Below, piece after piece: positions 3,140 to 61,857 of a stretch of 64,000 nt of DNA. Where the stretch lies: positions 7,181-71,180 of the forward strand of contig CALRHV010000001.1 in NCBI GenBank assembly GCA_943359525.1. The letters are read 5' to 3'. Source of the DNA: Candidatus Uhrbacteria bacterium. GTDB lineage: Bacteria; Patescibacteriota; Patescibacteriia; UBA9934. The position numbers were made by a program, and so were the translations under genes. The notes below the pieces were generated by a model. That model made no database searches and was not told the DNA's origin. It saw only the letters and a program-made list of their open reading frames with translations. How positions within the stretch are numbered: the first letter of the stretch is position 1; each line of letters begins with the position of its first letter.

Positions 3140-3350
3140 ATTGGCGATCCTCGAGTTCCGACCGGAGGGACTGATTTTCGATTTCACCGATGTTGTGTCG
3201 ACACGACATTTCATTTGCAAAAACACCAATGATTTTCACAATCAGATGTTGTGTCGACACAACATCCTTGATTTCGCAAAACGCACATACCAGGTCAGCC
3301 GACCACGTCAGTTGTTTGTATTTCCCGTCCATCCCGATCCACCCCTCCAA
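3140..3350. repeat. Repeat family copy 1 (approximate bounds): palindromic box tgttgtgtcgacacaaca x2 flanking a conserved 40-nt core, plus shared flanks
   Basis: Near-identical to 17745-17990; related to 49160-49370 and 61400-61640 (shared gatg-box-core-box architecture and 3' tail ccctccaaga.tcagttca). Confidence 0.8.
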
Positions 3351-3368
3351 GAATCAGTTCAGACCACT

Positions 3369-3749
3369 TCAAGCCTCCTTCCGTATACTCATCATAAGGA
3401 ATTCGATCAGTCCCACCAAAACCACTAGTAAAATCATGGTTCCGGAGGAGAACAGGTCGCGGGAAAGTAAGTAGAGACAGGCAAGGAAAAGAACAGAAAG
3501 CATCACGCCTTGTCGGAAAGAACGTGCAACGGCAGCATGAATAGCTTCTTCCGCGTATTTCTTTGACCGAATCATGGTTCCACCAATGGTAAAGACGCCG
3601 GCAATTCCCGCACCAAGCGTGAGATAGAAGATGAAAAAGGCTAATGTTCCTGCCGTTGCTGGATCAATTGAAATCATCACAATACACCATGCCGAAATAC
3701 TGATGGCGGTGCCAAGGGCGAGAGCGATGAGGTACTGATGGAGGGACAT
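3369..3749 (-). CDS. Hypothetical small integral membrane protein (3-4 TM helices)
   Basis: Hydrophobic segments; compact spacing with downstream operon. Confidence 0.5.
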   Translation of the reverse strand: MSLHQYLIALALGTAISISAWCIVMISIDPATAGTLAFFIFYLTLGAGIAGVFTIGGTMIRSKKYAEEAIHAAVARSFRQGVMLSVLFLACLYLLSRDLFSSGTMILLVVLVGLIEFLMMSIRKEA

Positions 3750-3761
3750 GAGAAGAGTATA

Positions 3762-4109
3762 TCAGAAATTTCCCTTCTCTTTCTGCACTCGTGCGATGAT
3801 TTTTGTGATATCTGCTTCTGGAATTTCCGACTGGATCCTCGCAAGGATTGTTGGAATCATCCCGTCGATGTCGAACGTGGCCGGTGCGTTGTCGCAGCCA
3901 AGAATGAGAATACCGGCGGCATAACTCGAGACACGAACGTCGTCTGCAAGCGGAGATCCCTCCAGCATTTCAGCGAGGATTTCTTTTGCGCTGTTGACGA
4001 TGATTGCCGCAGTTACCTGTTTTGTAATGCCATGTCGCATCAACGTGCCTTCGAGCATTTTGCTGATTTGTGTCAGCGAAGTCCGGCGGCGCTTAGGCTG
4101 GTCTTGCAT
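3762..4109 (-). CDS. DUF721 / DciA-like protein (true start at internal Met, so that the overlap with uvrD-like gene is only about 15 nt)
   Basis: C-terminal …DVRVSSYAAGILILGCDNAPATFDIDGMIPTILARIQ… resembles DUF721 core; located right after a helicase gene. Confidence 0.45.
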   Translation of the reverse strand: MQDQPKRRRTSLTQISKMLEGTLMRHGITKQVTAAIIVNSAKEILAEMLEGSPLADDVRVSSYAAGILILGCDNAPATFDIDGMIPTILARIQSEIPEADITKIIARVQKEKGNF

Positions 4110-7029
4110 ACGGGCAAATATCTTTAAAATCGCAGTACTGACAATGCGGGCCCGGGGTTGCCTGGAATGTGCTCGTGCGAATCTTTTCCATGCTGTCGCG
4201 AATCTGGAGCTTGAGCTTTTCCTTGTCCTTATCCGTTGGCTCAAAACTTACCGCCGTGTTCGATTCTAGGTAATAGTACGTCATCTTCTTCACGACGAGT
4301 GGCGGCACAAAACTTTCTTCTGCGGCAATAGCGTACAGCACCAACTGACGGCGGTCGTCCCAATCGAGTTTGGTTTTCGGCTGACCGGTTTTGTAGTCGA
4401 TAATCTCGATCCCACCATCGATGTCATCAATCCGGTCGATTCTACCTTTGACGAGAATTCCGTCGATCTTGAGCGTGAATCCTTTTTCGATGAATGTTGG
4501 CGACGGTGGATTTTCGGTGACCACGCGATAGTATTCCTTCATGATCTCGCCGCCGCGAGCCTGATACTCATCGCGAGTTTTGTCGTCTGGGTACCATTCA
4601 TCGATCCATGCCCGATCGTACATATCGAGCAAATCTTTCATTGTTGGCAGCGCGACGGCATCGTTTGAACCGTTGAATAGACTTGCTTGATGCGCAGCCT
4701 TCGACGCAATAATGCGTTCCATGAATGCCTGAAGTGCGTTGTGCATGGACTTTCCAAAGCTCATCTGGTGCTTGCCATACGACGGTACGCCAATAATGTG
4801 CGCGTATTTGTACTGCAACGGACACGTACTGAATGCAGCGATCTGCGAGAAACTGATCTTGTCCGGAATGTGAATGTTCGCGTCGCCCGTTGGTTTCTTG
4901 CCGACTTCGAGTGCGAGGCTGTCGGCGATATTCTCCGGTCGAGCAACAGTGATCGCGTTTGTGAATCCGAGTTCATCAAGAAACCGTGAGACTTTTCTCT
5001 TCCGAGCTCCTCCGTAATCCTCCGCACTCATCAGATACAATCCTTCCTTTGCGCGAGTCATCGCCACGTAAAACAGCCGACGCTCTTCTGCGACGTGATC
5101 ATTCCCCTCAACTTCATCCTTCATCAAACCCGCCGGAAAATCGATCGCCTGTGATCTGCTCACCGACGGGAAGCGTTGCTCGACCAAGTTGATCACGAAA
5201 ACGTATCGGAACTCGAGACCCTTCGATCCGTGCACGGTCATCACCGATACCACGTCTGGTCCTTCCTCAGGATCTTGAGCAACCGCGCCGTCTTCCCCCG
5301 CTGCACGCTCGGCATCGAACTCCTCAATGAATCTTGGGAGCGTCGCGTCGTCATTCATCGCAACAAAGCGCTTCAGGCGATTGAAAAAGCGTTCAAGAAA
5401 TCTATAGAGCTCTTGCTGCTCCATCTCGGAAGCGTGCTGACAGTCGCCGAGCAATCCTGTTTTCTTCATCATCGTCACGAACAATTCCGTGATCGGCAGT
5501 CGTTTTGCTGTATTTCGAAGTTCAGCAAGTTTCTGTTGGAGGTCGATAATCGTGTTTCGGCCGTGCATTGAAATGCGTGCCGCATCGGCGTACGTGAGCA
5601 AATCGAAGAGAGACATTCCCTTTCGTCGAGCATAGAACATCAGTGCCGTCAGATCTTCCTGCGATAACCCTAGTCGAGGATGCGAGAGGATCCGATATAA
5701 CGATGGTGAATCGTGCGGCGCGTTGATGACACGAAGGTAGCTGACTGCATCAAGAATAATCGGCATGGTGTACAGACCGGAGAGCGCCATGAATCGGTAC
5801 GGAATACCGGCACGTTCAAGGGCCTCGAGGAATGGATCAACGTGGTCGTTTCCACGCGCAAGCAGCGCGAAATCCTTCCAGCTTGCGCCAGACTCGTCGT
5901 GTAATTTCGTGATCGTCTCAACAACGGTAGCAACCTCGTCTTCGAGCGTTGCGGCATGAATGTGATGAACATTTCCCGCGTGTTCGATGTTCGAGATCAG
6001 TTGTTTCGATAAACCCTCGGAGACCTCGAGCCGATGGGGATTGTTCTTGGTGATCGATGAATATGCAATATCGAGAATCCCCCTGCCGCTGCGATAGTTG
6101 TGCACGAGCACGATCTTCTTTGTATCTGGAAAATCCGATCGGAACGTGAGAATATTCGCAAGCGCCGCACCGCGAAACTTATAGATCGCCTGATCATCGT
6201 CGCCAACGATTGTAAGGTTATTCCTCGGCGCCGCCAAAAGTTTGACGAGCTCGTACTGCACGCTGTTCGTGTCCTGAAACTCGTCCACCACGATGTATGT
6301 GAACCGTTTTTGATACTCGGCAAGAATGTTCGGACGAGTCTTGAAGAGTTCTACGGTGTACGCGAGTAAGTCGCCGAAATCGAGCGCGTCTTCGTTGATG
6401 AGAATGTCTTGATATGTTTTGTACGCACGAGCAACTTCACGGTGTTTTCTCCATTCAAGTCGTTCCTCTTCCGGCAACGCATCGAACGCTTCTTCCGATC
6501 CCGAAGTGATCGATGCGATCTGTGATTCGACTTGATCGATGTACTGATCTGGCGTTATTCCCTCGTCCTTCGCTCGCGAAAAGTGTGAAAGCAAAAGTTT
6601 GAAAAACTTCGTCGGCGTCCCCCGTGGCTTGTAGTAGTCGAGCGTGAAATCGGCAAGATGACGTCGCATGAACAGCCAGCCGTCCACTTCGGACGCGACC
6701 GTGAAATCTTGCGGGATGCCGATATCAACTCCGTGTTCGCGCAGCACTTTTTCGCAAAATGCGTGAAAGGTTGAGATGGAAAGATCGACGTATCCCATTG
6801 GCAGCAGCACGTCTACGCGTTCCTCCATTTCATTCGCGGCCTTGTCCGTAAACGTGAGTGCAAGAATATTTTCCGGCATCGCCTTACCTTGCTCAATAAG
6901 CCACGCAATGCGCTTGGTGATTACCGTCGTCTTCCCCGTCCCAGCCCCAGCAATAATCATGAGCGGCCCATCGCCATGGGTAACCGCTTGCTGTTGCTCA
7001 GCATTGAGATTATCGAGAAGCGAAGTCAT
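4093..7029 (-). CDS. UvrD/PcrA-family superfamily-1 helicase fused to a C-terminal PD-(D/E)XK, Cas4/AddB-like nuclease domain
   Basis: Walker A GAGTGKTT, UvrD motifs (LALTFTDKAANEM, VVDEFQDTN, the N-terminal part of the protein). C-terminal IDYKTGQPK nuclease motif and four Cys (…STCPLQYKY…CQYCDFKDICPY) typical of Fe-S RecB-family nucleases. Confidence 0.85.
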   Translation of the reverse strand: MTSLLDNLNAEQQQAVTHGDGPLMIIAGAGTGKTTVITKRIAWLIEQGKAMPENILALTFTDKAANEMEERVDVLLPMGYVDLSISTFHAFCEKVLREHGVDIGIPQDFTVASEVDGWLFMRRHLADFTLDYYKPRGTPTKFFKLLLSHFSRAKDEGITPDQYIDQVESQIASITSGSEEAFDALPEEERLEWRKHREVARAYKTYQDILINEDALDFGDLLAYTVELFKTRPNILAEYQKRFTYIVVDEFQDTNSVQYELVKLLAAPRNNLTIVGDDDQAIYKFRGAALANILTFRSDFPDTKKIVLVHNYRSGRGILDIAYSSITKNNPHRLEVSEGLSKQLISNIEHAGNVHHIHAATLEDEVATVVETITKLHDESGASWKDFALLARGNDHVDPFLEALERAGIPYRFMALSGLYTMPIILDAVSYLRVINAPHDSPSLYRILSHPRLGLSQEDLTALMFYARRKGMSLFDLLTYADAARISMHGRNTIIDLQQKLAELRNTAKRLPITELFVTMMKKTGLLGDCQHASEMEQQELYRFLERFFNRLKRFVAMNDDATLPRFIEEFDAERAAGEDGAVAQDPEEGPDVVSVMTVHGSKGLEFRYVFVINLVEQRFPSVSRSQAIDFPAGLMKDEVEGNDHVAEERRLFYVAMTRAKEGLYLMSAEDYGGARKRKVSRFLDELGFTNAITVARPENIADSLALEVGKKPTGDANIHIPDKISFSQIAAFSTCPLQYKYAHIIGVPSYGKHQMSFGKSMHNALQAFMERIIASKAAHQASLFNGSNDAVALPTMKDLLDMYDRAWIDEWYPDDKTRDEYQARGGEIMKEYYRVVTENPPSPTFIEKGFTLKIDGILVKGRIDRIDDIDGGIEIIDYKTGQPKTKLDWDDRRQLVLYAIAAEESFVPPLVVKKMTYYYLESNTAVSFEPTDKDKEKLKLQIRDSMEKIRTSTFQATPGPHCQYCDFKDICPYARPA

Positions 7030-7032
7030 GGC

Positions 7033-8163
7033 TTAAAGCGATGCGATATTTTCTGCGGCGGTAACAGCGAACTGAATTCCTTGTTGAGTGAGAAGATATG
7101 TTCCGGCGCCAAACATGATTGCAACGTGAACAGCGAGAACACCTGCGAGAATTTTCTGGTGCCTCGTCATTGGTGTTGATTCCGATGGTTCTGATCCCGC
7201 GGTGAGCGTTATAACGCCGCGAATCAAATACACGTTAATGATCGCGAGTGCAAAGAAGACAAGAAGTGCAAGGATAAGGTGTGCTTGAAGTGCATAACCA
7301 ACGCCAATAAGTTCGCTTACAAAAAGCACAGAAAATGGAGCGCCAAGAAGTGACGCGAAGAGCGCGCCAGAAAGATATTTCAGTGTGGTGTTTGATTGAA
7401 CCACTGCAGAGCTTTGTGTGGAGTACCACAGCCCAGAATGCGCAACGGCCTGACCAACAAGATGAATAATTGCAGGGATGGTCCCTGCTGGACCAGCGCC
7501 GATCATGAACGCAACAAGGCCAATGTGCTGAACGCTGGAAATTGATAGAAGCTGTCGTTTCTTTTTAAACACCAATTTCACCACCGCCATCAGTATAATG
7601 AGCGCACCAAAGCCAAGAAAAAAATTGTTCGTCCATACTCCGTCGTCTGCCATCGCTCCGTCGGTAATCTGTTTTACGCGGAGAAGCGCAATGAAGAACA
7701 CCACTGGCGCTGCGCCGCCAACAAAGCTTGTGAAACGCGTTTTCATGAAAAAGATCCCGAATGACGAGAGCGTTGCGACCGCCACCACAATAAATGCCCA
7801 TTGGATATATTGTGACGTGAAGAGCAATGCAGCTCCAATAGTGAAGAGACCAACCGAACCAATGCACAACGCGAGAATTGCCTTCCGTGCTTTTTCGTCT
7901 GCCGCACGCTGGGCGTGAAGCGCGAGGCACGTTGCCGCAAGAACGGCTAGCGCAAATGTCAGTGCAAGAACAGCGATGTTATTAGTGAACGCGGCCGCGA
8001 CAACCGCGACAAGTCCGGCGAAGGTGACGGAAAGTTCAGAACGATGTGCTCGTGCTCCATTGATGGTGAGCGCAAGCGTCCCAACCGCGAGTATTCCAAT
8101 CAACACCAACTGGCACCACACAAGGATGTCAACGTGCCACACAGAAAGGAATGCGTTCAACAT
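7033..8163 (-). CDS. Proton-conducting membrane transporter family (PF00361-like; NuoN/MnhD-like) polytopic membrane protein
   Basis: About 12 TM helices; …SSVQHIGLVAFMIGAG…IIHLVGQAVAHSGLWY… resembles NuoL/M/N core. Confidence 0.5.
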   Translation of the reverse strand: MLNAFLSVWHVDILVWCQLVLIGILAVGTLALTINGARAHRSELSVTFAGLVAVVAAAFTNNIAVLALTFALAVLAATCLALHAQRAADEKARKAILALCIGSVGLFTIGAALLFTSQYIQWAFIVVAVATLSSFGIFFMKTRFTSFVGGAAPVVFFIALLRVKQITDGAMADDGVWTNNFFLGFGALIILMAVVKLVFKKKRQLLSISSVQHIGLVAFMIGAGPAGTIPAIIHLVGQAVAHSGLWYSTQSSAVVQSNTTLKYLSGALFASLLGAPFSVLFVSELIGVGYALQAHLILALLVFFALAIINVYLIRGVITLTAGSEPSESTPMTRHQKILAGVLAVHVAIMFGAGTYLLTQQGIQFAVTAAENIASL

Positions 8164-8172
8164 ATGAGGCGA

Positions 8173-9900: not shown

Positions 9901-9974
9901 AGCCTGGAAATATTACGGAATAAGTCCCTGTATATCAGCCGAAGTGTATGGTTTATAGGGTTCCCGATCAAGCA

Positions 9975-10015
9975 GGTTGTCCACTGCAAAAATGACCCTT
10001 CCCGGCCTTATGGCT
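9975..10015 (-). terminator. Rho-independent terminator of the atp operon
   Basis: About 15-bp GC-rich stem (aatgacccttcccggcc / ggctggggagggtcatt) followed on the minus strand by TTTTTGC. Confidence 0.7.
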
Positions 10016-10036
10016 GGGGAGGGTCATTGATCGCGT

Positions 10037-10477: not shown

Positions 10478-10637
10478 AGAGTGGTGGATGCGAGCGATTC
10501 AACGGGTGGCACCGAGGGAGGCCCCCGTACGGAGCGCAACGAGCGCCGTAGTAACGTGATGATCGCCGATGAAGTGACGCGCGCGGTGAGCACCGTAACG
10601 GGGTCCGAGGTGACAGGACCCGTTGATGAGCTCGCAA

Positions 10638-12895
<2,258 letters not shown>

Positions 12896-16839: not shown

Positions 16840-17700
16840 CTAGGATAAGCGGAAAAGCTGGCGGGCGTTTTCCGTGGTAACGCGGGCAACCTCGGCAAGT
16901 GAAACGCCTTTTACGTCGGCGATGGCTTGGGCGACGAGGACGACGTTGGCGGGTTCGTTCCGTTTTCCTCGGAGTGGCACGGGGGAGAGATACGGGCAGT
17001 CTGTTTCGATCATCATCTGCTCCAAAGGGATCTCTCTTACTGCAGCAGCAAGGGATTTCCCGAAGGTTACGATCCCGGTGATTGAGATCAAAAAACCGAG
17101 ATCGGCATACTTCGCCGCATCGTCGATCGTGCCCGTAAAGCAATGAATCACTCCCCTACGCTCAATTCCCCCTCGGCCAATCTCCTCGGCAATGAGTGTT
17201 CGCATATCATCGTGCGCTCCGGTTACGTCGGCCGTTGCGCCACCACGACAATGAATCACGACAGGCTTGTTGTGTTTGGTGGCGAACTGAAGCTGTTGAC
17301 GGGCGACGTTGCGTTGATCGTTTTTGAACACTTCAACGTCCATTCCGTTCGGAATGCGAGAATAGTCGAGACCGAATTCGCCGATCGCGACAACCTTCGG
17401 ATGAGAGACGAGCGATTTGTAGCGTGCTTCATCGAATTCGCGCTCCGGCATCGGCTTATCGTGCGTCTCTTCGTTCTCGTCGACGAAGTTGTGATCGTGC
17501 ACATGTCCTGGATGCAAACCAATCGTGCACCACACACCGTCGTGCTGTTCGGCGAAGTCGATTCCAGACATACTCGTCGCGAATTTCGTTCCAACGGTAA
17601 TCAAAGAAATCCCGTTATCGCGAGCACGTTGCAACACCTCGGCACCATCGGCGCTGAAGGCTGGGAAATGAAGGTGGGCATGAGAGTCGATAAAGTCCAT
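16840..17700 (-). CDS. tatD: TatD-family metal-dependent hydrolase / DNase
   Basis: MDFIDSHAHLHF…, IGEFGLDY, HCFTG, ETDCPYL motifs. Confidence 0.85.
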   Translation of the reverse strand: MDFIDSHAHLHFPAFSADGAEVLQRARDNGISLITVGTKFATSMSGIDFAEQHDGVWCTIGLHPGHVHDHNFVDENEETHDKPMPEREFDEARYKSLVSHPKVVAIGEFGLDYSRIPNGMDVEVFKNDQRNVARQQLQFATKHNKPVVIHCRGGATADVTGAHDDMRTLIAEEIGRGGIERRGVIHCFTGTIDDAAKYADLGFLISITGIVTFGKSLAAAVREIPLEQMMIETDCPYLSPVPLRGKRNEPANVVLVAQAIADVKGVSLAEVARVTTENARQLFRLS

Positions 17701-17744
17701 AGAAGAAATAATCTGAAACTGATTCTTTGGATGGTGGTGAGAAT

Positions 17745-17990
17745 GATAAAAAAGTGCATTGTTGGCGATCCTTATGCTCCGACCGGCAGTTCAATTTCCA
17801 ATTTTGGCGATGTTGTGTTGACACAACATTTCGTGTGCAGAAATGCCAATGATTTTCACAATCAGATGTCGTGTCGACACAACATCCTCAATTTCGCAAA
17901 ACACACATGCCTGTCGCCGACGATGTCTGTCATTCGTTCGCCTCCGTCACCACGTCCCAACCCCCTCCAAAGATCAGTTTCAGAGCAGCC
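17745..17990. repeat. Repeat family copy 2 (approximate bounds)
   Basis: Aligns along about 240 bp with copy 1, including both tgt(c/t)gtgt(c/t)gacacaacat boxes. Confidence 0.8.
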
Positions 17991-18453
17991 CTGCATTGCT
18001 TTCAATATCGACCGCGCGGCTGACGACTGATGATGAGAGAAGCGAGATTCGTACATCGCCGATTGGAACAAGCGTTACAGCAACGTAGGCGAGAACAAGA
18101 ATCGCTACAGCAGATTGTGCTACGCCGAATGCAGCGCCGAGAAGATTGTTGATGAAGTTTACAAACGGAATAATTGCGATGATTTTTCGAACCAAATCGA
18201 GTGCGTCAACAATGTATTGCGCGAGGCGACTGACGATGAGGGTAAGAATCAAAAACGCAACAATCGTAATCCACGGATGCTCCGCAAACGACAGTCCGTA
18301 TGCTTCATCTAACCAATTCATGGCGTAGAACGACGCGACGACACTGGCGACGAGCGCAACCAAACTTCCGAACGACCGCACAAAACCACTTCGCCATCCA
18401 GCAAATGCCATGACAATAACGAAAATGATGATGAGAATGTCGACGATACCCAT
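17980..18453 (-). CDS. cvpA: CvpA-family membrane protein
   Basis: Four TM helices, MGIVDILIIIFVIVMAFAGWRSGFVRSFGSLVALV… pattern. Confidence 0.7.
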   Translation of the reverse strand: MGIVDILIIIFVIVMAFAGWRSGFVRSFGSLVALVASVVASFYAMNWLDEAYGLSFAEHPWITIVAFLILTLIVSRLAQYIVDALDLVRKIIAIIPFVNFINNLLGAAFGVAQSAVAILVLAYVAVTLVPIGDVRISLLSSSVVSRAVDIESNAGLL

Positions 18454-21805: not shown

Positions 21806-22330
21806 ATGATCTCGATCAACAAGCCAGCACCAAGCTTTGAAAACATCACGTCGTACACCAAGGGCGAGTTTACGAAAACAAGCCTCAGCTCGTACAAAGG
21901 AGGCTGGGTGGTGCTGTTCTTCTACCCTCGCGACTTCACCTTCATCTGTCCAACCGAAATTAAGGGCTTCCAAAAGCACGAAGCGGACTTTGCCGCCCTC
22001 AACGCAAAAGTCATCGGCGCATCCACAGACAGCGAATGGAGCCACAAAGCATGGTTTGAAAAGGATCTCCCTGAAGTGGCCTACCCTATCCTTGCCGACA
22101 CAACGCAAAAAGTTTCCCGCGACTACGGCGTGCTCAACGAAGACGACGGCAGTTCCGATCGCGGCTTGTTTATTATCGATCCAGAAGGTGTAGTGAAATA
22201 CGCCCTAGTCTCTGCCGGCTCCGTCGGCCGATCAGTCAAAGAAGTGCTCCGCGTTCTCACAGCACTTCAATCCGGCGAACTCTGCCCAATGGAATGGGAG
22301 CCGGGCGAGAAAACATTGGGAAAGGCGTAA
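21806..22330 (+). CDS. Typical 2-Cys peroxiredoxin (AhpC/Tsa family)
   Basis: FTFICPTE peroxidatic Cys motif and resolving Cys near C-terminus (GELCPMEW). Confidence 0.92.
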   Translation: MISINKPAPSFENITSYTKGEFTKTSLSSYKGGWVVLFFYPRDFTFICPTEIKGFQKHEADFAALNAKVIGASTDSEWSHKAWFEKDLPEVAYPILADTTQKVSRDYGVLNEDDGSSDRGLFIIDPEGVVKYALVSAGSVGRSVKEVLRVLTALQSGELCPMEWEPGEKTLGKA

Positions 22331-22344
22331 ACGTCACATATCAT

Positions 22345-22866: not shown

Positions 22867-22965
22867 ATAGTAATGTTATGTCATCATATTACATTGCTAA
22901 CACGGTGAAGTCAAACGTGCTCCTCATTTACCTCATCTCCGCCGGCAGGGAGTGCCGATCGGTAA

Positions 22966-23060
22966 AGAAAGCGATGCGTGTACTGACGGCACTTCAATCC
23001 GGCGAACTCTGCCCAATGGAATGAGAACCAGGAGAGAAGACATTAGGAAAGGCGTAAACG
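22966..23060 (+). pseudogene. Diverged duplicate (about 85% identity) of the last about 95 nt of the peroxiredoxin gene, with its stop codon
   Basis: Direct repeat of 22239-22333; translates …VLTALQSGELCPME* vs native …VLRVLTALQSGELCPMEWEPGEKTLGKA*. Confidence 0.8.
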
Positions 23061-23976: not shown

Positions 23977-24020
23977 ACAAACTACTATACCACAAAATCA
24001 GCTCCTCGTCAAGTGACGAT
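23977..24020 (-). terminator. Rho-independent terminator downstream of the 841-aa gene
   Basis: 9-bp stem aatcagctc/gagctgatt followed on minus strand by TTTTGTGG. Confidence 0.55.
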
Positions 24021-24076
24021 GAGCTGATTCTTGGCTAATATTAGCTAAAAGTAATGTTAATATATCCTTCAGTTCA

Positions 24077-35384: not shown

Positions 35385-35569
35385 GCCGACCGAGCGTAGC
35401 GAGCGATTCAACGAGTGGCACCGAGGACATCACAAGCGCCAGTGGCGAGGATACATTCTTCCAACGAGCACGCGCCCCTCAGCTGCAGTCGAGTGTAAAC
35501 GAGACGTCGCAGCGTAGGGGATTCGCGCGGAGTGCAGAAGAATGTATCCGAGCCACCAGCTTGCGATGA

Positions 35570-49084: not shown

Positions 49085-49159
49085 TCCTCCGCCTGAACTG
49101 AAGTGAGCTGATCTTGGAGTGGGTTGGGATGGGGGCTCGTCATTGCGAGGAGGGTAATC

Positions 49160-49370
49160 CCGACGCGGCAATCTAGAGAATTTTGCATCATCGGCGTCAT
49201 CGGGGTGGTCGATTTCGTGATATCCTCGATGTGCGGTCCACCGCACATTTCGTTCATCAATTCATTGGGCTTTTTGCAAATAAAATGTGCGGTGGACCGC
49301 ACATGCTCAAAACCGGAAATCGAGCACTCCGATCGCAACACGAGGATTGCCGATTAAGATTCATTTTCTT
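49160..49370. repeat. Repeat family copy 3 (approximate), boxes gtgcggtccaccgcac / gtgcggtggaccgcac, directly upstream of XRE gene
   Basis: Shared upstream flank (ttttgcatcat.ggcg…gatttcgtgatatcctcgatg), core and 3' tail with copies 1, 2, 4. Confidence 0.75.
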
Positions 49371-49374: not shown

Positions 49375-49590
49375 ATGAAACAACCAAAATTTATTTCGCA
49401 CCTCTATTCCTTTCGGATCGTTGAACCGATCTCACAGTTCGATCTCGCAAAAGAACTCGGAATCCGCAGGCAAACGCTCGCCGCCATCGAAAAAGGTACA
49501 GCTCAGCCTTCGCTACTCACTGCCTTCCGCCTCGCAAAATATTTCAAAACCCCAATTGAAAACCTTTTTTCTTTCAAAGACCGTCCGTAG
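49375..49590 (+). CDS. XRE-family (Cro/C1-type) helix-turn-helix transcriptional regulator, 71 aa
   Basis: …ISQFDLAKELGIRRQTLAAIEKGTAQPSLLTAFRLAKYFKTPIENLFSF…; paralogue of 61642..61857. Confidence 0.8.
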   Translation: MKQPKFISHLYSFRIVEPISQFDLAKELGIRRQTLAAIEKGTAQPSLLTAFRLAKYFKTPIENLFSFKDRP

Positions 49591-53482: not shown

Positions 53483-53488
53483 AACGCG

Positions 53489-53525
53489 AAGGCCGCCCTC
53501 ACCGGCGGCCTTCATGCTTTTTCAT
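53489..53525 (+). terminator. Rho-independent terminator
   Basis: aaggccgcc-ctcacc-ggcggcctt then catgcttttt. Confidence 0.7.
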
Positions 53526-53575
53526 CCACAGAAATGCGTTGACAGCTGGGTGGAACAGGCATGAAATGACTGTAT

Positions 53576-54685: not shown

Positions 54686-54707
54686 ACGCGATCGATCAGA
54701 TCGGCAA

Positions 54708-54733
54708 GACACCAAAACCGGCTCTGCGCCGGT
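54708..54733 (+). terminator. Rho-independent terminator
   Basis: caaaaccggc-tctgc-gccggttttg. Confidence 0.7.
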
Positions 54734-54764
54734 TTTGTGATTGCAATTTGTTATACTGCTCTGC

Positions 54765-55907: not shown

Positions 55908-56043
55908 CACTCCCGGATTTCTCCGGGAGTGCGTGGCACATGTTAGTGCGTTCCTTGGTTGTACAATTTGAGCGCGTAGTCAGACCACCACGCTCCGGCG
56001 CTCGGGCCGCCACTGCAGTTGCCGTCGGAATCGCCTGGTGCTT

Positions 56044-56505
56044 TCACCCATAATCCTGCATCTTGATATCACTGACGGCTTTCATGAATTCGTCGTAATG
56101 TGCTGCGATCATCGAACGATTGATAGTGTAGCCGAGCGTGATGTGCTGACTCAGGACTTTTGTAGCCCATTGACGGAATTTGGTTGCTCGTTGGGAATTC
56201 ACCCGGTATCCAACAGAAATAATCACGTCGAGATTGTAGTACTCAATTTCACGTGTTACTTCGCGTTTGCCTTCCTTTTGAACTGTTGCGATTTTTGCAA
56301 CAGTTGCCTTTTGGCCAAGTTCGCCACTTTCAAAAATATTCTGGATATGACGAGAGACACCGGATTTATCCGTATCAAAAAGATCAGCCATTTGCTGAAG
56401 ACTGGCCCAAAGCGTTTGTTTTTTTGTATCTGTGCGCAGCTCGATAGCTCCGGATTTCGCCTGATAAACAGCGAGCTGATTCGTGATATTCCTCTTGGAT
56501 TTCAT
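56044..56505 (-). CDS. RhuM-family protein (virulence-associated / Fic-DOC neighbourhood family), N-terminal conserved domain only
   Basis: …GAIELRTDTKKQTLWASLQQMADLFDTDKSGVSRHIQNIFESGEL…YYNLDVIISVGYRVNSQRATKFRQWATKVL… matches RhuM core. Confidence 0.75.
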   Translation of the reverse strand: MKSKRNITNQLAVYQAKSGAIELRTDTKKQTLWASLQQMADLFDTDKSGVSRHIQNIFESGELGQKATVAKIATVQKEGKREVTREIEYYNLDVIISVGYRVNSQRATKFRQWATKVLSQHITLGYTINRSMIAAHYDEFMKAVSDIKMQDYG

Positions 56506-56551
56506 ACGGAGGCATTATAACAAAATCCCAGCATTTCTGCTGAGATTTCGT

Positions 56552-56626
56552 TGGCTCCGGGGGTGGGGATCGAACCCACGACCTGAGGATTAACAGTCCT
56601 TCGCTCTGCCGCTGAGCTACCCCGGA
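56552..56626 (-). tRNA. tRNA-Asn (anticodon GTT), CCA encoded (coordinates approximate within 2 nt)
   Basis: Own fold: acceptor TCCGGGG/CCCCGGA, D-arm GCTC…GAGC, anticodon loop CTGTTAA, T-arm GTGGG-TTCGATC-CCCAC, discriminator G, CCA. Confidence 0.85.
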
Positions 56627-56728
56627 ACGAATAATGAACGGGGGCAGAATATCATGATTGGCGCAGAGGATCAAGCGGGTGTGCCCACAGAGCCAGGCCG
56701 TCTTCGTGTTAAAATACGAACATATCCT

Positions 56729-57118
56729 ATGCAAAAATCTACCATATTCGGCATCAAGGTCAGCGTCGGCTCAACACTTCTCCTCTTCGCGCTCGTTGTT
56801 CTCTCCTATTACGTCCTCGGCGAAGGATATCGCGAAGCTATTCACAATAAGGTTTTTATAGGTGCGTACACAACCGTTCTCTCTTTCCTCACCGCGCTAT
56901 TCACCGCAAATACTCTGTTAAAGAATTCAAAGCTCTCAAAACAAGAGGCTATCGATCACCTGAATCGAGGCTGGCGGGTATATGCAGGAATTGCGGCGAT
57001 CTTCTTTTTTATCAACTTCAACCAGGCACTGATGAATGGACCGATCTTCACCTTGTTCTCAATTCTCTCAATCGCCGCTGGTTCTGCAGCGTTCTTTGTT
57101 CTGAGGGCTCGACAGTAA
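56729..57118 (+). CDS. Small hypothetical membrane protein (4 TM helices)
   Basis: Hydropathy. Confidence 0.45.
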   Translation: MQKSTIFGIKVSVGSTLLLFALVVLSYYVLGEGYREAIHNKVFIGAYTTVLSFLTALFTANTLLKNSKLSKQEAIDHLNRGWRVYAGIAAIFFFINFNQALMNGPIFTLFSILSIAAGSAAFFVLRARQ

Positions 57119-57170
57119 ACAAAAAAGACGAAGCATTGCTGCCCCGTCTTTTTCTCATCGTGATCGATGA

Positions 57171-58310
57171 TTAGTCGATAACGACGCCATTGTCCCAGTT
57201 CTGATCAATGGTAGTTGTTCCGTAAAATTCCTTTGTTTTGCTGTAATCGGCAGAGGAATAAATCTTGCTGCCGATGGTGTAGTTGTTCCAATATGCCTGC
57301 GGAAGCGTCACAACGTAACTCGTCCAGCGCGAACCGTAAATGGCCTTTGCTGCAGCTTCATTAACAATGGGACGGAGCACCTGACCATCGGCCACCGCGT
57401 ACACCGTGCTGGAATTTGAGAATTTCACAAGCGACGTGCCAGGACGATACGTCACATTCCGGCCGCTCGGCATATTATTAAGTGTTGCCTTACTCACGAT
57501 GATCACGTTCGAAAACGAACTGTACCAGGTTTTGTACACGCTTTCTGATGGGAAAAGGTGCTTCTTACCGTCCAAACCGTAGTAATACACGATATGACAA
57601 TCGTCAGAAGTTGGCGCGTATGATCCGCACTGGGTCTTCACCACTGTTCCCTTTACGACGTTCGCGACCGGATAGTCGTCATACAAAATGACGCCCTTGC
57701 TCACACCAACAAACGATACCGGGCCGTTGCTCCAATTATTATCAGCATCAACACACGTTGACTGAATAACATTGCGTCCAAGCGCGTTCAAGGTGACGCT
57801 CTGAGACCATCTCGATCCATCGATCGCCATCCGCTCACCGAGCGTGCCGTTCACACGGAGTTTGCAATACTGCACCGGAGCCTCTCCCGATGTTGTCACA
57901 TAAAAACGCGTTAAGACTCCAGCTACTGCAGTGGTCGGAGTAACAACCGACACCACTGGCCCCTGCGTATCGATCTCAAAGGTCAGCCCAGAGGAAACGC
58001 TTACGCCGTTCACGCTGTCGTGGGAACGAACGTAGAAGGTGTGCCATCCGGTTGTGAGGGTGTTGTATGTATACGTAGAAACGTTGCCGATTCCAGCCCA
58101 TTCGCCGTTGTCGAGCAACACTTCGTACCAGGTTGCGCCCGCTGAAGGCGTCCAGGTGAAGGTTGGGGTAACGTCATTGGTGTACTTTCCGCCAACAATC
58201 GCAAGGTTTACTGGAGCTACAGGAGCCGCAAATGCTGGCAACGCTGGGCCGAACACCGAACCAATAATCATCACCGCTACTGCGAAACGTGACACAAGCG
58301 TCTTTTGCAT
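57171..58310 (-). CDS. Secreted Ig-like/fibronectin-like repeat protein, paralogue B (inverted relative to A)
   Basis: Signal peptide …AVMIIGSVFGPALPAFAAP; collinear similarity to paralogue A throughout. Confidence 0.65.
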   Translation of the reverse strand: MQKTLVSRFAVAVMIIGSVFGPALPAFAAPVAPVNLAIVGGKYTNDVTPTFTWTPSAGATWYEVLLDNGEWAGIGNVSTYTYNTLTTGWHTFYVRSHDSVNGVSVSSGLTFEIDTQGPVVSVVTPTTAVAGVLTRFYVTTSGEAPVQYCKLRVNGTLGERMAIDGSRWSQSVTLNALGRNVIQSTCVDADNNWSNGPVSFVGVSKGVILYDDYPVANVVKGTVVKTQCGSYAPTSDDCHIVYYYGLDGKKHLFPSESVYKTWYSSFSNVIIVSKATLNNMPSGRNVTYRPGTSLVKFSNSSTVYAVADGQVLRPIVNEAAAKAIYGSRWTSYVVTLPQAYWNNYTIGSKIYSSADYSKTKEFYGTTTIDQNWDNGVVID

Positions 58311-58405
58311 AGTTGAATGACCCTCCGATTACTTTTCTATTGATATTGCACGTTATTTAGGCACTTCTGTCAATAATTTCAGGGGTAGGCTATCCTTACG
58401 CGACT

Positions 58406-59302
58406 ATGAATCCACTCTCAATCCAACACGTTTCAAAAACGTACAAAACACCCAAAAAAGAAGATTTGTTGGCCGTGGACGACGTTTCGCTCGTTATTGC
58501 CCCTGGAAGCATTCATGGGCTGCTCGGCCCCAATGGCGCCGGAAAATCCACGCTCATCAGCCTTATTGCCGGAATCAATACGCCAACACATGGTTCAATT
58601 ACGCTTTTCGGCCTTGATGTGATCAAAAACCCCGAGGCCGCAAAAGGGCTCATCGGCGTTGTCCCACAGGAGGTGGTGGTGGAAATGGCTTTCACTGTTC
58701 AAGAAGTGCTGTATTACTTTTCTGGAATGTACGGCGTACCACAGGCCCAGCGACAAGCGCGAATCGACCAAGCACTTGACGACCTCCAACTCACAGAAAA
58801 GAAACACGAAAAAGCAAAGAATCTTTCCGGCGGAATGAAACGTAGGCTGATGATCGCAAAGGCGATTCTTCATCAACCAAAATTACTCATCCTCGACGAA
58901 CCAACAGCGGGCGTCGACGTCGCGTTGCGACAAAAGATCTGGGAACTCGTCCGCAGGCTCAACGCATCCGGCACAACGATTCTCTTTACCACGCACTATC
59001 TTGAAGAAGCCGAACAGCTTTGTGATGCGATTACGCTCGTGAATCATGGAAAGGTGATCAAGGAAGGAAAGCTTAAGGATATTCAGCAGGAATTCTCCAA
59101 GAACATCATTCACTTTGAGCTGTTTAATAAATCTGTTTCACATCCAAGCGACGTTGTTGCTACCGGTTCTGAATTCGAATTCCCGATGACGAATCTTGCG
59201 CAAGACATGAACATGATCACCACGCATTACGGCGATAATCTCAAAAATATTCGAAGCGAAGCTGCATCGCTTGAGCAGATCTTCCTGACGCTGACGAAAT
59301 AA
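58406..59302 (+). CDS. ABC transporter ATP-binding protein (ABC-2 exporter type)
   Basis: Walker A GPNGAGKST, LSGGMKRR, Walker B LILDEPT. Confidence 0.9.
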   Translation: MNPLSIQHVSKTYKTPKKEDLLAVDDVSLVIAPGSIHGLLGPNGAGKSTLISLIAGINTPTHGSITLFGLDVIKNPEAAKGLIGVVPQEVVVEMAFTVQEVLYYFSGMYGVPQAQRQARIDQALDDLQLTEKKHEKAKNLSGGMKRRLMIAKAILHQPKLLILDEPTAGVDVALRQKIWELVRRLNASGTTILFTTHYLEEAEQLCDAITLVNHGKVIKEGKLKDIQQEFSKNIIHFELFNKSVSHPSDVVATGSEFEFPMTNLAQDMNMITTHYGDNLKNIRSEAASLEQIFLTLTK

Positions 59303-59308
59303 TTCTCT

Positions 59309-60076
59309 ATGAGTATCTCCCTCCCCCAAACCGGAATGTGGGCGCTGTATGCCCGCGAAGTGAAACGTTTCCAAAAACTTTGGATGGACACCATCTTTAA
59401 CCCGATTGTTTCCATCGGACTGTATCTTGCAGTGTTTGGAGTCGTTGCTGGTGATCGCGTGATTCACGGCGTTCCGTACCTCGCGTTCATCTACATTGGA
59501 CTGCTCAGCATGAATCTGATCAACGCGAGTATTTCAAACCCCGCGTTCGCGCTCATCATCAGCAAAAATCTCGGAACGATCATCGACCTACAGCTTGCGC
59601 CAATTTCCCCATGGCGCGTTGGACTGGCTTACGCCCTTGCTGCTCTCACTCGCGGAGTCATCACGCTCTTCGTTGGAGTCCTGCTCACGGCGTGGTTCAT
59701 TCCGCTTGGAGGCATTGCTCACCCATTCCTGCTCCTCCTTGCGATTGCCTTAACCGGCATTCAATTCGGCATTGTTGGCGTTGCGTTCGGCATGTGGGCG
59801 AAGAATTTTGAGGCCCTCACATTCCTAACAACGTTCGTTCTACAACCGATGATCTTTCTTGCCGGCGTGTTCTACCCTATCGATAGTTTGCCATCGCCGT
59901 GGAACATCATCAGCCAGTTCAATCCCCTGCATCACAACGTAAATCTTCTCCGTTTCGCCGTTACCGATTACGCCGACGGCAATCCATGGAGATCGCTCAT
60001 TATCGTTATCACTCTTCTTGTCGCCGCAACCGTCGCGATGCATTACATCGTGAAGAAAAAACTTCGCGCGGAGTAA
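59309..60076 (+). CDS. ABC-2 family transporter permease
   Basis: Six TM helices, immediately downstream of ATPase. Confidence 0.8.
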   Translation: MSISLPQTGMWALYAREVKRFQKLWMDTIFNPIVSIGLYLAVFGVVAGDRVIHGVPYLAFIYIGLLSMNLINASISNPAFALIISKNLGTIIDLQLAPISPWRVGLAYALAALTRGVITLFVGVLLTAWFIPLGGIAHPFLLLLAIALTGIQFGIVGVAFGMWAKNFEALTFLTTFVLQPMIFLAGVFYPIDSLPSPWNIISQFNPLHHNVNLLRFAVTDYADGNPWRSLIIVITLLVAATVAMHYIVKKKLRAE

Positions 60077-60079
60077 TCT

Positions 60080-61354
60080 ATGCCATACGATATTTGTATT
60101 ATAGGCGCGAGCTTTTCTGGACTGACCCTCGCCCATCATCTTCCAAAAGAACTCAGCGTCCTCATCGTCGACGCGAAGCCGGAAGCAGGATCGACGGTTG
60201 AATCAACGGGACTTATTACCGTCAAAACTCGCGACGAATTCGCGACGTTTTTCCCGATCCATGATTTCATCACGAACCCTATTTCCGCGATTGCTGTCAT
60301 CGCGCCAGGACTCGAGGACATGTTCGTCTCAACTGTGCCCGAACCATGGATTTATCAGACAGATACCAAAGCGCTCGTGAAAGCGCTCGCCGATCGCTTG
60401 CCGCCGAATGTGACACTCCGAACGAAGACGGTATTCCTCGGAGTTAATAATACTGATCAGCCGACCAGGGTTCGTGTGCGATCGCTGGGCTCCGATGAAG
60501 AGGAGATCGATATTGCGTTCCTCGTTGGCGCCGACGGCGGGCATTCGAAAGTTGCGCAATGCGTGAATGGACTATCGAAAAATACGAAGTTTCTCTTCGG
60601 CTACGAACAAGTGTTCTTCGGAGATGTTTTGCGAGGCCCGAAACCGGAGGAAACGATCTTTCACTATTGGTTCGGCGAGTTCTCGCTTGGGTACGGCGGA
60701 TGGCTGTCGCCAACTATTGTTGATGGAAAGAAAGCATTCCGCATCGGGCTCGCAAAGATGATGAAAGATCGCGGGGATGCAAAACAGCTCACGGAAACAT
60801 TCGTCAAGCAGCTTGTTGATCGCGGCGATATTCGGATTGATGGTGATGTTACGAAACCTGGATATGTATTTGGAAGTCATATTCCCATCGGCGGAACGCG
60901 TTCAAAGATTTCGAAAAACAACGTGCTCCTCATTGGTGACGCCGCCGGATTCTGCGGAGCGTTTGCAGCCGACGGTATTAAGGGATCGGTGATTTCGGGA
61001 AAGGAAGCCGCAATTCTCATTCCACAGTTTCTTCGAGGAAAAACTGATGCGCTCGATCAACTTCACACACGAATGAACACCCACGGCGGCATCATGAGCT
61101 ACTACCGCCGGCAAATGCTGTATCGATTCATTTGGAGCGTGATGCAAAGGAACCGAACATTCCGCGCAATGTACGACATTATCGCCGTAGAACACGCAAC
61201 GTTCCTGGATCAATTTTGTGATAGTAAAGACAAGCACCGCAGCCTCGCGTGGACGGTGTTAAAGTGGAGGCATACGGCGAAGCTGATACGGTACTCGGCG
61301 TATTGGGCGTACGATGCGGTGTTATGGTTATTACAGAAGACAAAACTGAACTGA
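60080..61354 (+). CDS. FAD-dependent oxidoreductase, geranylgeranyl reductase-like family
   Basis: N-terminal MPYDICIIGASFSGLTLA Rossmann motif, …LIGDAAGF… motif. Confidence 0.75.
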   Translation: MPYDICIIGASFSGLTLAHHLPKELSVLIVDAKPEAGSTVESTGLITVKTRDEFATFFPIHDFITNPISAIAVIAPGLEDMFVSTVPEPWIYQTDTKALVKALADRLPPNVTLRTKTVFLGVNNTDQPTRVRVRSLGSDEEEIDIAFLVGADGGHSKVAQCVNGLSKNTKFLFGYEQVFFGDVLRGPKPEETIFHYWFGEFSLGYGGWLSPTIVDGKKAFRIGLAKMMKDRGDAKQLTETFVKQLVDRGDIRIDGDVTKPGYVFGSHIPIGGTRSKISKNNVLLIGDAAGFCGAFAADGIKGSVISGKEAAILIPQFLRGKTDALDQLHTRMNTHGGIMSYYRRQMLYRFIWSVMQRNRTFRAMYDIIAVEHATFLDQFCDSKDKHRSLAWTVLKWRHTAKLIRYSAYWAYDAVLWLLQKTKLN

Positions 61355-61399
61355 TCCTTTGAGGATTGGAATGGAGAAATGCAGTGCGATATGTGTGAC

Positions 61400-61640
61400 T
61401 TGCCCAGCTTGGGTGTGCAATTTTGCATTTCTCGAGTGTAAAGACCTCTTTACATTCCTTTTGCAACTTTTATTGGGCTTTTCGATCGAAGAAGTGTAAA
61501 CTCCTCTTTACACTCCTGGATTGTGAAATTGAACACCCCAAGCCACCGATAATACCACCGTCTCGTCGCCACAACCCCATTAAAAGATCAAGATCACTCC
61601 CCTCCCAACCCATTCCAAGATTCAGTTCACTTCATATTCC
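61400..61640. repeat. Repeat family copy 4 (approximate), boxes gtgtaaagacctctttacat / gtgtaaactcctctttacac, directly upstream of second XRE gene
   Basis: Shares aattttgcat…ctcga.gtg head, attgggctttt/tttgcaa core words and ccctccaa…agattcagttca tail with other copies. Confidence 0.7.
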
Positions 61641-61641
61641 T

Positions 61642-61857
61642 ATGCCCCTCCGATATATCTCTCGACTGAACTTCTATCGATCCTCCGATCGGATCTCCCA
61701 GCTCGCTCTCTCAAAGGCGCTCGGAGTCTCCCGTCAAACACTTTCTGCATTGGAATCTGGAAAAACCCAGCCAACATTGCTCATTGCTCATAAAATCGCC
61801 GCATACTTCGCGATTCCGATCGAGGATATCTTCTCCTTTAAGGATCTCAAATCCTAA
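61642..61857 (+). CDS. XRE-family HTH transcriptional regulator, 71 aa (paralogue of 49375..49590)
   Basis: MPLRYISRLNFYRSSDRISQLALSKALGVSRQTLSALESGKTQPTLLIAHKIAAYFAIPIEDIFSFKDLKS aligns gap-free with the other copy. Confidence 0.8.
   Translation: MPLRYISRLNFYRSSDRISQLALSKALGVSRQTLSALESGKTQPTLLIAHKIAAYFAIPIEDIFSFKDLKS

Follow-up and report, generated by a model that had tools for sequence, protein, structure and literature searches.

Four related repeat loci lie dispersed over a 64,000-nucleotide stretch of a Candidatus Uhrbacteria bacterium genome (assembly GCA_943359525.1, contig CALRHV010000001.1, positions 7,181 to 71,180; this whole stretch is referred to below as the window), and they raise the question of what kind of element could stand, in nearly the same form, before two paralogous genes for small XRE-type regulators and beside housekeeping genes as well. 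The explanation that we favor, with moderate confidence, is a cassette resembling a MITE, or miniature inverted-repeat transposable element, which would carry a promoter and a pair of operators, the latter having diversified together with dedicated repressors. The repeat family itself, its anatomy, and the orientation of its copies, as corrected below, are certain. An initial annotation of the window had described four such loci, and they are indeed present at about the places given. A pattern for a part of the architecture (how box 1 ends, a stretch of the core, and box 2 in outline) matched the window at these four loci and nowhere else, while no match is expected in shuffles of the 64 kb. 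A profile hidden Markov model built from 30 family members likewise found exactly four copies in the window, with E-values of 5e-35, 3e-33, 5e-32 and 2e-29, and none beyond them. The true extents of copies 1 to 4 are 3087-3363, 17712-17984, 49092-49368 and 61346-61630, the exact ends being uncertain by a few nucleotides.

Measured from one terminal inverted repeat (TIR) to the other, the element is 214-319 bp long, or roughly 270 bp, and forms a pseudo-palindrome: the asymmetric core in its middle is flanked on either side by a 20-bp box, then by an arm, and outermost by an inverted repeat. The paired near-palindromic boxes of the initial annotation were quoted correctly; there are two in each copy, 20 nt each, with a core of 36 nt (copies 1-3) or 38 nt (copy 4) between them. 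The terminal repeats, which the initial annotation had missed, are 20-45 nt long, with the consensus CTGAACTGATCTTGGAGGGGTTGGGA; the full left repeat (TIR-L) measures 44 nt in copy 3 and 29 nt in copy 4. A CTGAACTGATCTTGGAGGGG-type repeat is found at both ends of copies 1, 2 and 4, the right end of copy 3 being degenerate, and the word CTGAACTGATCTTGG belongs to these terminal repeats as well. Further inverted repeats are nested inside, namely ATCATCGGCGAC/GTCGCCGATGAT and GTGTG-TTTTGCGAAAT with its complement. The elements have no coding capacity, as internal open reading frames, e.g., the one at 3138-3350, gave no Pfam match. It is to be noted that the gene-distal terminal repeat is partly duplicated in tandem at 49092-49135 of the window and in two loci from elsewhere, L008 and L021 (loci outside the window are cited by their L numbers), where two CTGATCTTGGA-type words lie 25-35 nt apart.

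The four copies had been read as lying in the same orientation, which the profile scores and the alignments contradict. On the minus strand, copies 1 and 2 scored 117.4 and 111.8 bits, versus 53.1 and 45.0 on the plus strand, while copies 3 and 4 scored 107.8 and 99.2 bits on the plus strand, versus 28 and 24 on the minus strand. The plus-strand core of copies 1 and 2 fits that of copy 3 only when reverse-complemented (a score of 18 versus 8), and for the ‘head’ of copy 1 the better partner is the reverse-complemented ‘tail’ of copy 3 (25), not the head of copy 3 (14.5); over the whole length also, the reverse complements of copies 1 and 2 align far better with copies 3 and 4. Since the arms and the core both align better when reversed, copies 1 and 2 are inverted as wholes. 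What led to the misreading is that the element as a whole is a pseudo-palindrome and that TTTGCAAA equals its reverse complement. Copies 1 and 2 had also been placed between convergent housekeeping genes, whereas both neighbors of either copy are on the minus strand. Together, these two errors hid the promoter position of copies 1 and 2 for mreB and tatD. Correctly oriented, all four window copies point at a gene start, i.e., that of mreB, of tatD, and of the two XRE genes. The remaining detail of gene context was accurate, as copy 2 does run over the 3' end of cvpA, the stop codon of which falls inside its outer repeat.

The family extends to other genomes, in a clade of Candidatus Uhrbacteria (Patescibacteria, candidate phyla radiation). 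XRE-A, the regulator encoded next to copy 4, has only three relatives in a word-indexed protein collection, and on their contigs the order of FAD-dependent oxidoreductase gene, element and XRE gene is kept down to 76% protein identity, with better conservation of the boxes and core than elsewhere in the spacer. Species-representative genomes (596 Gb) were scanned with a pattern that made no demand on the match of box 1, which gave 20 hits, 18 of them with a box 1 that matched box 2 at 15-20 of 20 positions; the other two, at 10-11 of 20, are chance matches. Among the 18, Ike-50m-33 supplied six, H41-bin182_1 five, MaH-04nov19-6 two and TrH-25oct19-103 one. Another six, all new, came from a metagenome scan, and over both scans the true members (box identity of at least 15/20) were cleanly separated from the chance matches (at most 12/20). 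One copy missed by the pattern, L004b, was found by the profile. The collection thus came to 31 distinct elements, nearly all in Candidatus Uhrbacteria or Patescibacteria assemblies, with four copies in the present 64 kb, at least eight in Ike-50m-33, and at least five in H41-bin182_1. In the sense orientation, the downstream genes are mreB (three loci), tatD, topA, recG, a trhO-like rhodanese gene, a glycosyltransferase-4 gene (mraY/wecA-like) and the XRE genes (in one class of these, a gene for a RecB-like nuclease that contains an RNase_H_2 domain comes next); mreB is preceded by a copy both in the window and in Ike-50m-33. A search of a plasmid collection with the element gave no match. 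In Rfam 15, the whole window yielded only a tRNA, and a permissive search reached no more than 25 bits against gathering thresholds of 50-140. A tree of the elements was too noisy to be read for grouping by genome versus by locus. Family members in Uhrbacteria-type gene neighborhoods also occur in metagenome-assembled genomes labeled Gammaproteobacteria (L007, L019, L022) or Kapaibacterium (L014); these contigs are probably mis-binned.

What the boxes may be is suggested by where their variation lies. Each box consists of two inverted half-sites of the form (A/G)TGT-nnn-G-W around a 2-nt center, in which the triplet nnn was seen as YGT, GCG, AAA, CAA, TAA and a few others. Box 1 agreed with the reverse complement of box 2 at 17.5 of 20 positions within elements, versus 12.8 of 20 between elements, and over the half-sites the variable triplet agreed at 2.60 of 3 positions within an element, versus 1.10 of 3 between elements. 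The 70-nt arms beside the boxes, on the other hand, scored 9.1 within and 9.0 between elements, which rules out a general homogenization of palindromes as the cause of the matching boxes. In L039, L045 and L051, the boxes are identical or one base apart, while the cores have clearly diverged. As for base pairing, 439 of the 496 within-box stem positions were Watson-Crick, and the others (22 G-U, 13 A-C and 22 of other kinds) had no strand-specific excess of G-U. Matching that is confined to the boxes, fixed boxes around a drifting core, and the lack of a G-U excess together argue for sequence-specific recognition by a protein. Where boxes are asymmetric, those of L011 are related as an inverted repeat (20/20, versus 12/20 as a direct repeat), as are those of L039 and L051 (20/20 versus 16/20), whereas those of L008 form a direct repeat (20/20, versus 16/20 as inverted); judged from these alignments, the mixture fits four roughly equivalent half-sites for a homodimer. 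The centers of the two putative operators are 56-58 bp apart. Taken together, we consider it very probable that the boxes are operators of the adjacent XRE paralogs.

The proteins themselves bear on this reading. Both window XRE proteins consist of a single HTH_3 domain (PF01381; E = 2e-11 and 2e-12), and those of the family are 65-75 amino acids long; XRE-A and XRE-G, the paralog encoded next to copy 3, are 52% identical. The closest solved homolog is CylR2 (1utx), with E = 1e-8 over residues 7-68 of 71. CylR2 is a dimeric repressor of 66 amino acids that binds an inverted repeat in its target promoter. Copies 3 and 4 do stand directly before the two 71-amino-acid XRE genes (at 49375 and 61642), as had been noted, but end 8-14 nt ahead of the ATG, as does the element before every inspected XRE gene of the family. 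At about 16 XRE-linked loci, falling into four classes, the triplet of the adjacent boxes goes along with the residues on either side of the invariant Arg-Gln (RQ) that opens the recognition helix. Thus, (V/I)S-RQ-T occurs with AAA (copy 4, L002 and L016, and independently in the deep lineage of L022 and L032), IS-RQ-A with CAA or AAA (L003, L020), (I/V)G-RQ-A with YGT (L010, L015, L019), and IR-RQ-T with GCG (copy 3). Three loci that were fetched through protein homologs after this rule had been stated all fitted it, with no exceptions: IRRQTL with GCG boxes (L064), ISRQAL with CAA boxes (L065), and IGRQAL with CGT boxes (L058-63). The ISRQAL protein of L065 is encoded by Ike-50m-33, which also has an element of the CAA class elsewhere (L004b). 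XRE-Y and XRE-G are 72% identical and differ in this helix only by G/R and A/T; an arginine alongside a G-rich triplet would be a chemically plausible pairing. The earlier suggestion that operator pairs had coevolved with regulator paralogs is therefore supported at every XRE-linked copy examined. At the level of sequence, selective constraint on the matched boxes and the XRE-box correspondence are documented by these comparisons, and it may be presumed that the XRE proteins physically bind the boxes. A separate observation concerns H41-bin182_1, in which a GCG-class XRE gene (L021, about 2019-2300, with L029 as its duplicate) has been cut to its C-terminal third (…AQPSLLTAFRLAAYFKVPVEKLFSFKERP), while elements with GCG boxes persist upstream of this reduced XRE gene and of a trhO-like gene (L005); the GCG regulon of this genome may have been orphaned.

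Filled and empty sites in related genomes, which the initial annotation had put forward as a check, could be compared for one site, cvpA-tatD, where copy 2 lies, and the site was found empty in L055, L056 and L057. In L056 and L057 (84% TatD identity) the two genes overlap as ATGA, in L055 (70%) they are 2 nt apart, and in L054 (81%) two unrelated small genes stand between them; a profile search of the 20-kb L054 and L055 loci found no family element. In the window, by comparison, the 279 nt from the cvpA stop to the tatD ATG are made up of the TIR-bounded unit plus 11 nt. In a closer tatD relative, P0008 (90% identical), the cvpA-tatD gap is 439 nt. L057 and L017, a locus with a family member, both come from assembly CALRGY01, and a genome with an empty cvpA-tatD site thus does harbor the family. 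As far as gene order can tell, the insertion of copy 2 has uncoupled tatD and the ATP synthase operon that follows it from cvpA. Other observations are in the same direction. Homology between copies is bounded by the terminal inverted repeats, and TIR-like words occur only at elements in the 456 kb of fetched sequence. The terminal repeats supply the ends of neighboring reading frames, including the last 14 codons of murG (the TIR-R, or right repeat, of L023 in Ike-50m-33), the cvpA stop codon, and the end of the FAD-dependent oxidoreductase gene. About 10 of the 31 copies are directed at a real convergent gene from its 3' side (murG, recO, a PBP2-type transpeptidase, a GT4 glycosyltransferase, ABC transporters). 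On these grounds, past mobility of the TIR-bounded unit is likely, and the mechanism of its movement is something that we infer. Of the earlier proposal of a tiny MITE-like cassette carrying its own autoregulator, a TIR-bounded mobile unit is thus supported, but the XRE gene is not part of the repeat unit. Solo copies had been thought to have lost this gene; since it starts 8-14 nt outside the gene-proximal repeat, they are better described as cassettes before or beside other genes.

A promoter within the cassette was also considered. The only sigma-70-like match that recurs at a fixed position is on the sense strand, where the central hexamer of box 1 would serve as the -35 element (TCGACA, TTGACT, TTGACA and similar), followed by a 17-nt spacer and AATCAT in the core. 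Matches of at least 8 of 12 positions were found in 15 of the 31 elements, and no antisense position recurs in more than three. The genome does use promoters of the TTGACA/TAnAnT type, with TA(C/T)ACT boxes 6-28 nt before start codons. Two other candidates were rejected: a sigma-54 promoter in the core, the GG-GC spacing of TGGCAT-TTTT-TGCA being 9 nt, not 12 (by eye), and a promoter beside the start codon inside TIR-R, where there is neither a -35-like sequence nor a consistent position. A Bacteroidetes-type -7/-33 promoter and a canonical site for integration host factor (IHF) were only partially matched in the core, again by eye. An internal outward promoter under repression is a tentative part of the reading, to which we give slightly less than an even chance on the sequence matches at hand; that the XRE proteins would repress, rather than activate, is presumed. 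In the window in general, Shine-Dalgarno-like sequences are rare (6 of 43 gene starts), and many genes have a -10 box (TACACT, TATACT or TAATAT) 6-28 nt before the ATG, with leaders ending in ...CT ATG, which suggests very short leaders or leaderless mRNAs in the source organism.

In the model that would combine these elements, a homodimer of a CylR2-like XRE protein of 65-75 amino acids would bind each box, and each paralog, being encoded 8-14 nt beyond its own ‘anchor’ copy, would be autoregulated. The paralogs would read different nnn triplets through changes that flank the invariant Arg-Gln of the recognition helix, and the asymmetric core would give the cassette its direction. The promoter would be of the sigma-70 type, with its -35 in the center of box 1 and its -10, AATCAT, in the core; an XRE protein on box 1 would occlude the -35, and box 2, at about +12 to +31, could act as a second operator or as a roadblock, a layout familiar from classical repressors. 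Copies of the cassette would have spread to other intergenic sites, and wherever one landed in the correct orientation before a gene, that gene would join the regulon of the XRE paralog that matches the boxes of the copy. Genes so recruited would be mreB and tatD in the window, and topA, recG, the trhO-like gene and the mraY/wecA-like gene elsewhere; copies between convergent genes probably do nothing.

Several results weigh against this model or narrow what it can claim. Three copies lie upstream of a gene in the reverse orientation; such placement, like that of the copies facing convergent genes, is the behavior of an inserting element, and not of a purpose-built promoter. No target-site duplication was detected, direct repeats in the flanks of 13 elements averaging 1.38 nt versus 1.49 +/- 0.31 nt in randomly re-paired flanks, a test in which the insertions may be old; nor was any transposase, recombinase or stray terminal repeat found in the 456 kb of fetched sequence or among the checked open reading frames of the window. 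It is for these two reasons that the element is called MITE-like and not a MITE. The 56-58 bp between operator centers is out of helical phase, and conservation of ATTGG, TTT and RAARTGT is partly forced by the search pattern. The box classes coincide with paralog clades, and the independent co-changes of protein and operator therefore number only three or four, not sixteen. For the boxes of copies 1 and 2, a cognate G-RQ-A paralog is absent from the window and was not located in the source genome; the nearest proteins of this type are from other samples. The XRE-G sequence recurs as homolog P0130. Lastly, in the AAA and GCG classes the promoter candidate is weak, with ACCTCT as the -35 in copy 4 and ATTCAT as the -10 in copy 3, promoter prediction gave no promoter in copies 3 and 4, and the leaders implied are 100-230 nt long, versus 6-28 nt for other genes of the genome.

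These points also feed the alternatives. If the family were an ordinary, non-mobile regulon, the copies would be vertically inherited promoter regions of genes under XRE paralogs, their long similarity would go back to old segmental duplications of one such region, and the ‘terminal repeats’ would be functional parts of such regions. The anchor copies are indeed stable at orthologous positions, with the FAD-oxidoreductase/XRE-A/typA order in five genomes, XRE-Y/RecB-like nuclease in at least five including the deep lineage, and XRE-G/SET in three; the mreB copy is shared by the window and Ike-50m-33, and the missing target duplication and transposase would need no explanation. Such a regulon hardly accounts, however, for a pair of genes that overlap as ATGA in relatives and are here parted by exactly one TIR-bounded unit and 11 nt, for the third or so of copies that face a convergent 3' end where no promoter is needed, for the neighbors whose C-termini or stop codons have been replaced by terminal repeats, or for homology between copies that stops at these repeats, and we regard it as unlikely. 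Another possibility is a MITE whose boxes serve the element itself, as sites for a transposase or an architectural protein, so that XRE adjacency would be incidental or an insertion preference. The nested inverted repeats (terminal, internal and boxes) do look like transposon ends with subterminal binding sites, the asymmetric box pairs of L011, L039 and L051 are related as inverted repeats, and the core imperfectly resembles a Correia-type IHF site (by eye, against the consensus). Nonetheless, the triplet co-varies with the recognition helix of the adjacent XRE protein in every case, the three later loci included; the boxes are homogenized within elements and the arms are not; and some pairs, as in L008, are direct repeats, as would fit four equivalent homodimer half-sites. 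This possibility, too, we find quite improbable.

Two further alternatives place the function in RNA or in DNA inversion. A structured RNA, whether a cis-regulatory leader or a small RNA, could arise from transcribed hairpins or from pairing of box 1 with box 2 around a 36-nt loop, the differences between copies then being compensatory. Pairing is indeed kept despite the change of sequence between classes (the 439 of 496 positions given above), permissive Rfam matches to generic long-hairpin models (miRNA precursors) cover the box-core-box region, and a terminator-like scan picks up the boxes. Against these stand the lack of a clear G-U preference on either strand, box sequences that are identical within a class across loci with diverged cores, which speaks for recognition of sequence rather than of structure, the agreement of box class with a protein recognition helix, and the absence of any Rfam family at even one third of its gathering score; moreover, box 1 would not be transcribed from the best promoter candidate. 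An RNA of this kind therefore has little probability. Still smaller is that of an inverton, an invertible promoter in which site-specific recombination would flip the core with the boxes as its inverted repeats, and which we can hardly credit. It could be suspected from the plus-strand core of copies 1 and 2, which is inverted relative to copies 3 and 4 between similar heads and tails, and from boxes that flank a promoter-like core. The apparent inversion vanishes, however, once copies 1 and 2 are reverse-complemented as wholes, the arms then aligning better as well; six independent assemblies of one locus all have the same orientation; known invertible segments are far longer than the 36-38 bp between these repeats; and no integrase or invertase domain was found in the neighbors or in the checked window reading frames of unknown function.

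The favored reading, a MITE-like cassette with co-diversified repressors, may be compared with described systems. Correia elements of Neisseria (CREE/NEMIS) are TIR-bounded, have a conserved core, create promoters, bind IHF and in this way control adjacent genes, and differ between genomes by filled and empty sites (PMC2649163; PMC10969869). The Uhrbacteria element is like CREE in being small, non-coding and TIR-bounded, with a conserved core, and in being dispersed in intergenic regions beside genes, but it measures 214-319 bp versus about 100-155 bp for CREE. CREE duplicate a TA target, whereas no target duplication was found here. Moreover, the site that CREE offer is for a general architectural protein, in contrast to paired predicted operators that would answer to a dedicated repressor. 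Subfamilies matched to regulator paralogs are lacking in CREE, as is a regulator gene next to an anchoring copy, and CREE belong to another phylum. ‘Putative mobile promoters’ are near-identical upstream regions before non-homologous genes of one genome, defined by identity alone (50-100 nt, at least 80%) and taken to be regulatory sequence that has propagated and rewires transcription (Matus-Garcia, Nijveen and van Passel 2012, PMC3488235). They have no set anatomy and no cognate regulator, unlike the present unit with its terminal repeats, two putative operators, core and regulator-operator classes. Among regulators, CylR2 of Enterococcus faecalis (1utx) agrees with the family in size, in its single HTH_3 domain, and in a recognition helix that starts with SRQT, but it acts at one promoter with its partner CylR1, has no specificity-switched paralogs and no repeat element, and is only moderately identical to the window XRE proteins. 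Cro/CI-type regulators and the C proteins of restriction-modification systems are also small HTH_3 dimers, autoregulated through two palindromic promoter operators, and owe their specificity to a few helix residues. Their operators are a few bp apart and private to one phage or restriction-modification locus, while those proposed here are 56-58 bp apart, flank a conserved core, and have been copied to housekeeping genes on a TIR-bounded element; no phage or restriction-modification context was found in the window. Among the regulatory roles of prokaryotic MITEs, a review from 2024 names promoters, IHF sites and RNase processing, and the words operator, repressor, regulon and transcription factor occur in it zero times (PMC10969869). 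Our literature search on regulators and repeats of Patescibacteria and Uhrbacteria found nothing relevant. The element thus remains, as first supposed, one that matches no literature description found and no Rfam family; as predicted from the sequences, the combination of a TIR-bounded cassette, paired operators for a dedicated repressor, and subfamily triplets that match anchored paralogs has no description that we found in the literature.

In bacteria of the candidate phyla radiation, genomes are very small and recognizable regulators are few, and to our knowledge almost nothing is known of how they control transcription. If the model is true, it would provide at least four natural, orthogonal repressor/operator pairs that are one or two amino acids and three bp per half-site apart, through which the coevolution of transcription factor specificity and regulon membership could be tested through exchanges of residues and triplets; synthetic biology, too, could use the pairs as compact orthogonal parts. 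It would add, too, a bacterial repeat element that hands out specific repressor operators to new genes, beyond promoters or IHF sites. In eukaryotes, transposable elements are well known to play this part. A bolder, and to us rather doubtful, extension is a programmable wiring system for a minimal genome, in which mobile subfamilies would each be addressed by an orthogonal CylR2-like repressor, with one or two residues changed from one repressor to another. Any gene would then come under a paralog of choice once a copy had been moved before it, and the targets would be genes of cell shape, DNA topology and repair (mreB, topA, recG), together with tatD and its ATP synthase operon. In a variant of equal standing, the system may reflect an arms race between repeat and repressor, each paralog having arisen to silence the outward promoter of one element subfamily.

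The individual copies are laid out as follows, beginning with the two on the minus strand. Copy 1 lies upstream of mreB (1933-2991, minus strand; Pfam MreB_Mbl, E = 2e-130). Its gene-distal TIR-L (3342-3363) reads TCTGAACTGATTCTTGGAGGGG on the minus strand and is an exact match to the TIR consensus. Next comes box 1 (3246-3265), which is ATGTTGTGTCGACACAACAT, of the TGT class, its center TCGACA (3257-3252) being the candidate -35; the asymmetric 36-nt core (3210-3245) has the candidate -10, AATCAT, at 3234-3229. Box 2 (3190-3209) reads ATGTCGTGTCGACACAACAT on the minus strand, and the gene-proximal TIR-R occupies 3087-3113. Copy 2, the insertion between cvpA (17980-18453; Pfam Colicin_V) and tatD (16840-17700; Pfam TatD_DNase, E = 3e-72; followed by the ATP synthase operon), shares the minus strand with both genes and the operon. 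TIR-L (17961-17984) holds the cvpA stop codon at 17980-17982; box 1 (17866-17885) reads ATGTTGTGTCGACACGACAT on the minus strand, with the candidate -35 at 17877-17872; the core (17830-17865) has the candidate -10 AATCAT at 17854-17849; and box 2 (17810-17829) precedes TIR-R (17712-17738), which ends 11 nt before the tatD ATG.

Copies 3 and 4 are on the plus strand, as are the XRE genes that they precede. Copy 3, with a divergent metallophosphoesterase gene to its left, starts with the partly duplicated TIR-L (CTGAACTGAAGTGAGCTGATCTTGGAGTGGGTTGGGATGGGGG, 49092-49135), followed by box 1 of the GCG class (ATGTGCGGTCCACCGCACAT, 49229-49248), the core (49249-49284) and a box 2 (49285-49304) that equals box 1 exactly when reverse-complemented (inverted-repeat score 20/20), and it ends with the degenerate TIR-R (GATTAAGATTCATTTTC, 49352-49368). 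The gene downstream encodes the GCG-class XRE-G (49375-49590; 71 amino acids, CylR2-like HTH_3, E = 2e-11), the recognition helix of which starts with IRRQTL. The locus of copy 4 is kept in L002, L003, L016 and L020. Its TIR-L (61346-61374) provides the last two codons and the stop (CTG AAC TGA) of the FAD-dependent oxidoreductase gene (60080-61354); box 1 of the AAA class (GTGTAAAGACCTCTTTACAT, 61436-61455), the 38-nt core (61456-61493) and box 2 (GTGTAAACTCCTCTTTACAC, 61494-61513) follow, and TIR-R (CCCCTCCCAACCCATTCCAAGATTCAGTTCAC, 61599-61630) ends 11 nt before the ATG of XRE-A (61642-61857; 71 amino acids, CylR2-like HTH_3, E = 2e-12). In this protein the recognition helix starts with VSRQTL, and the next gene is typA/bipA. 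Apart from the four copies, a solitary TIR-like 17-mer (ATGAGCTGATTCTTGGC) occupies 24018-24034 in a gap between convergent genes, where neither boxes nor a core are near; matches at this stringency are expected to number 3.6, and the word is either what is left of an element end or a coincidence.

Two other repeats of the window are of a different kind. A direct repeat of 130 nt (22204-22333 and 22931-23060), about 80% identical, flanks the segment 22381-22866. It corresponds to the 3' end of an AhpC-like gene (21806-22330), duplicated beyond a gene for a RelE/HigB-like toxin and its small partner, and it looks as though a toxin-antitoxin cassette had been inserted there and the ahpC 3' end duplicated in the process. 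Finally, a 28-nt word (GCGAGCGATTCAACGRGTGGCACCGAGG), identical at 27 of 28 positions, occurs at 10490-10517 and 35399-35426, in otherwise unrelated regions.

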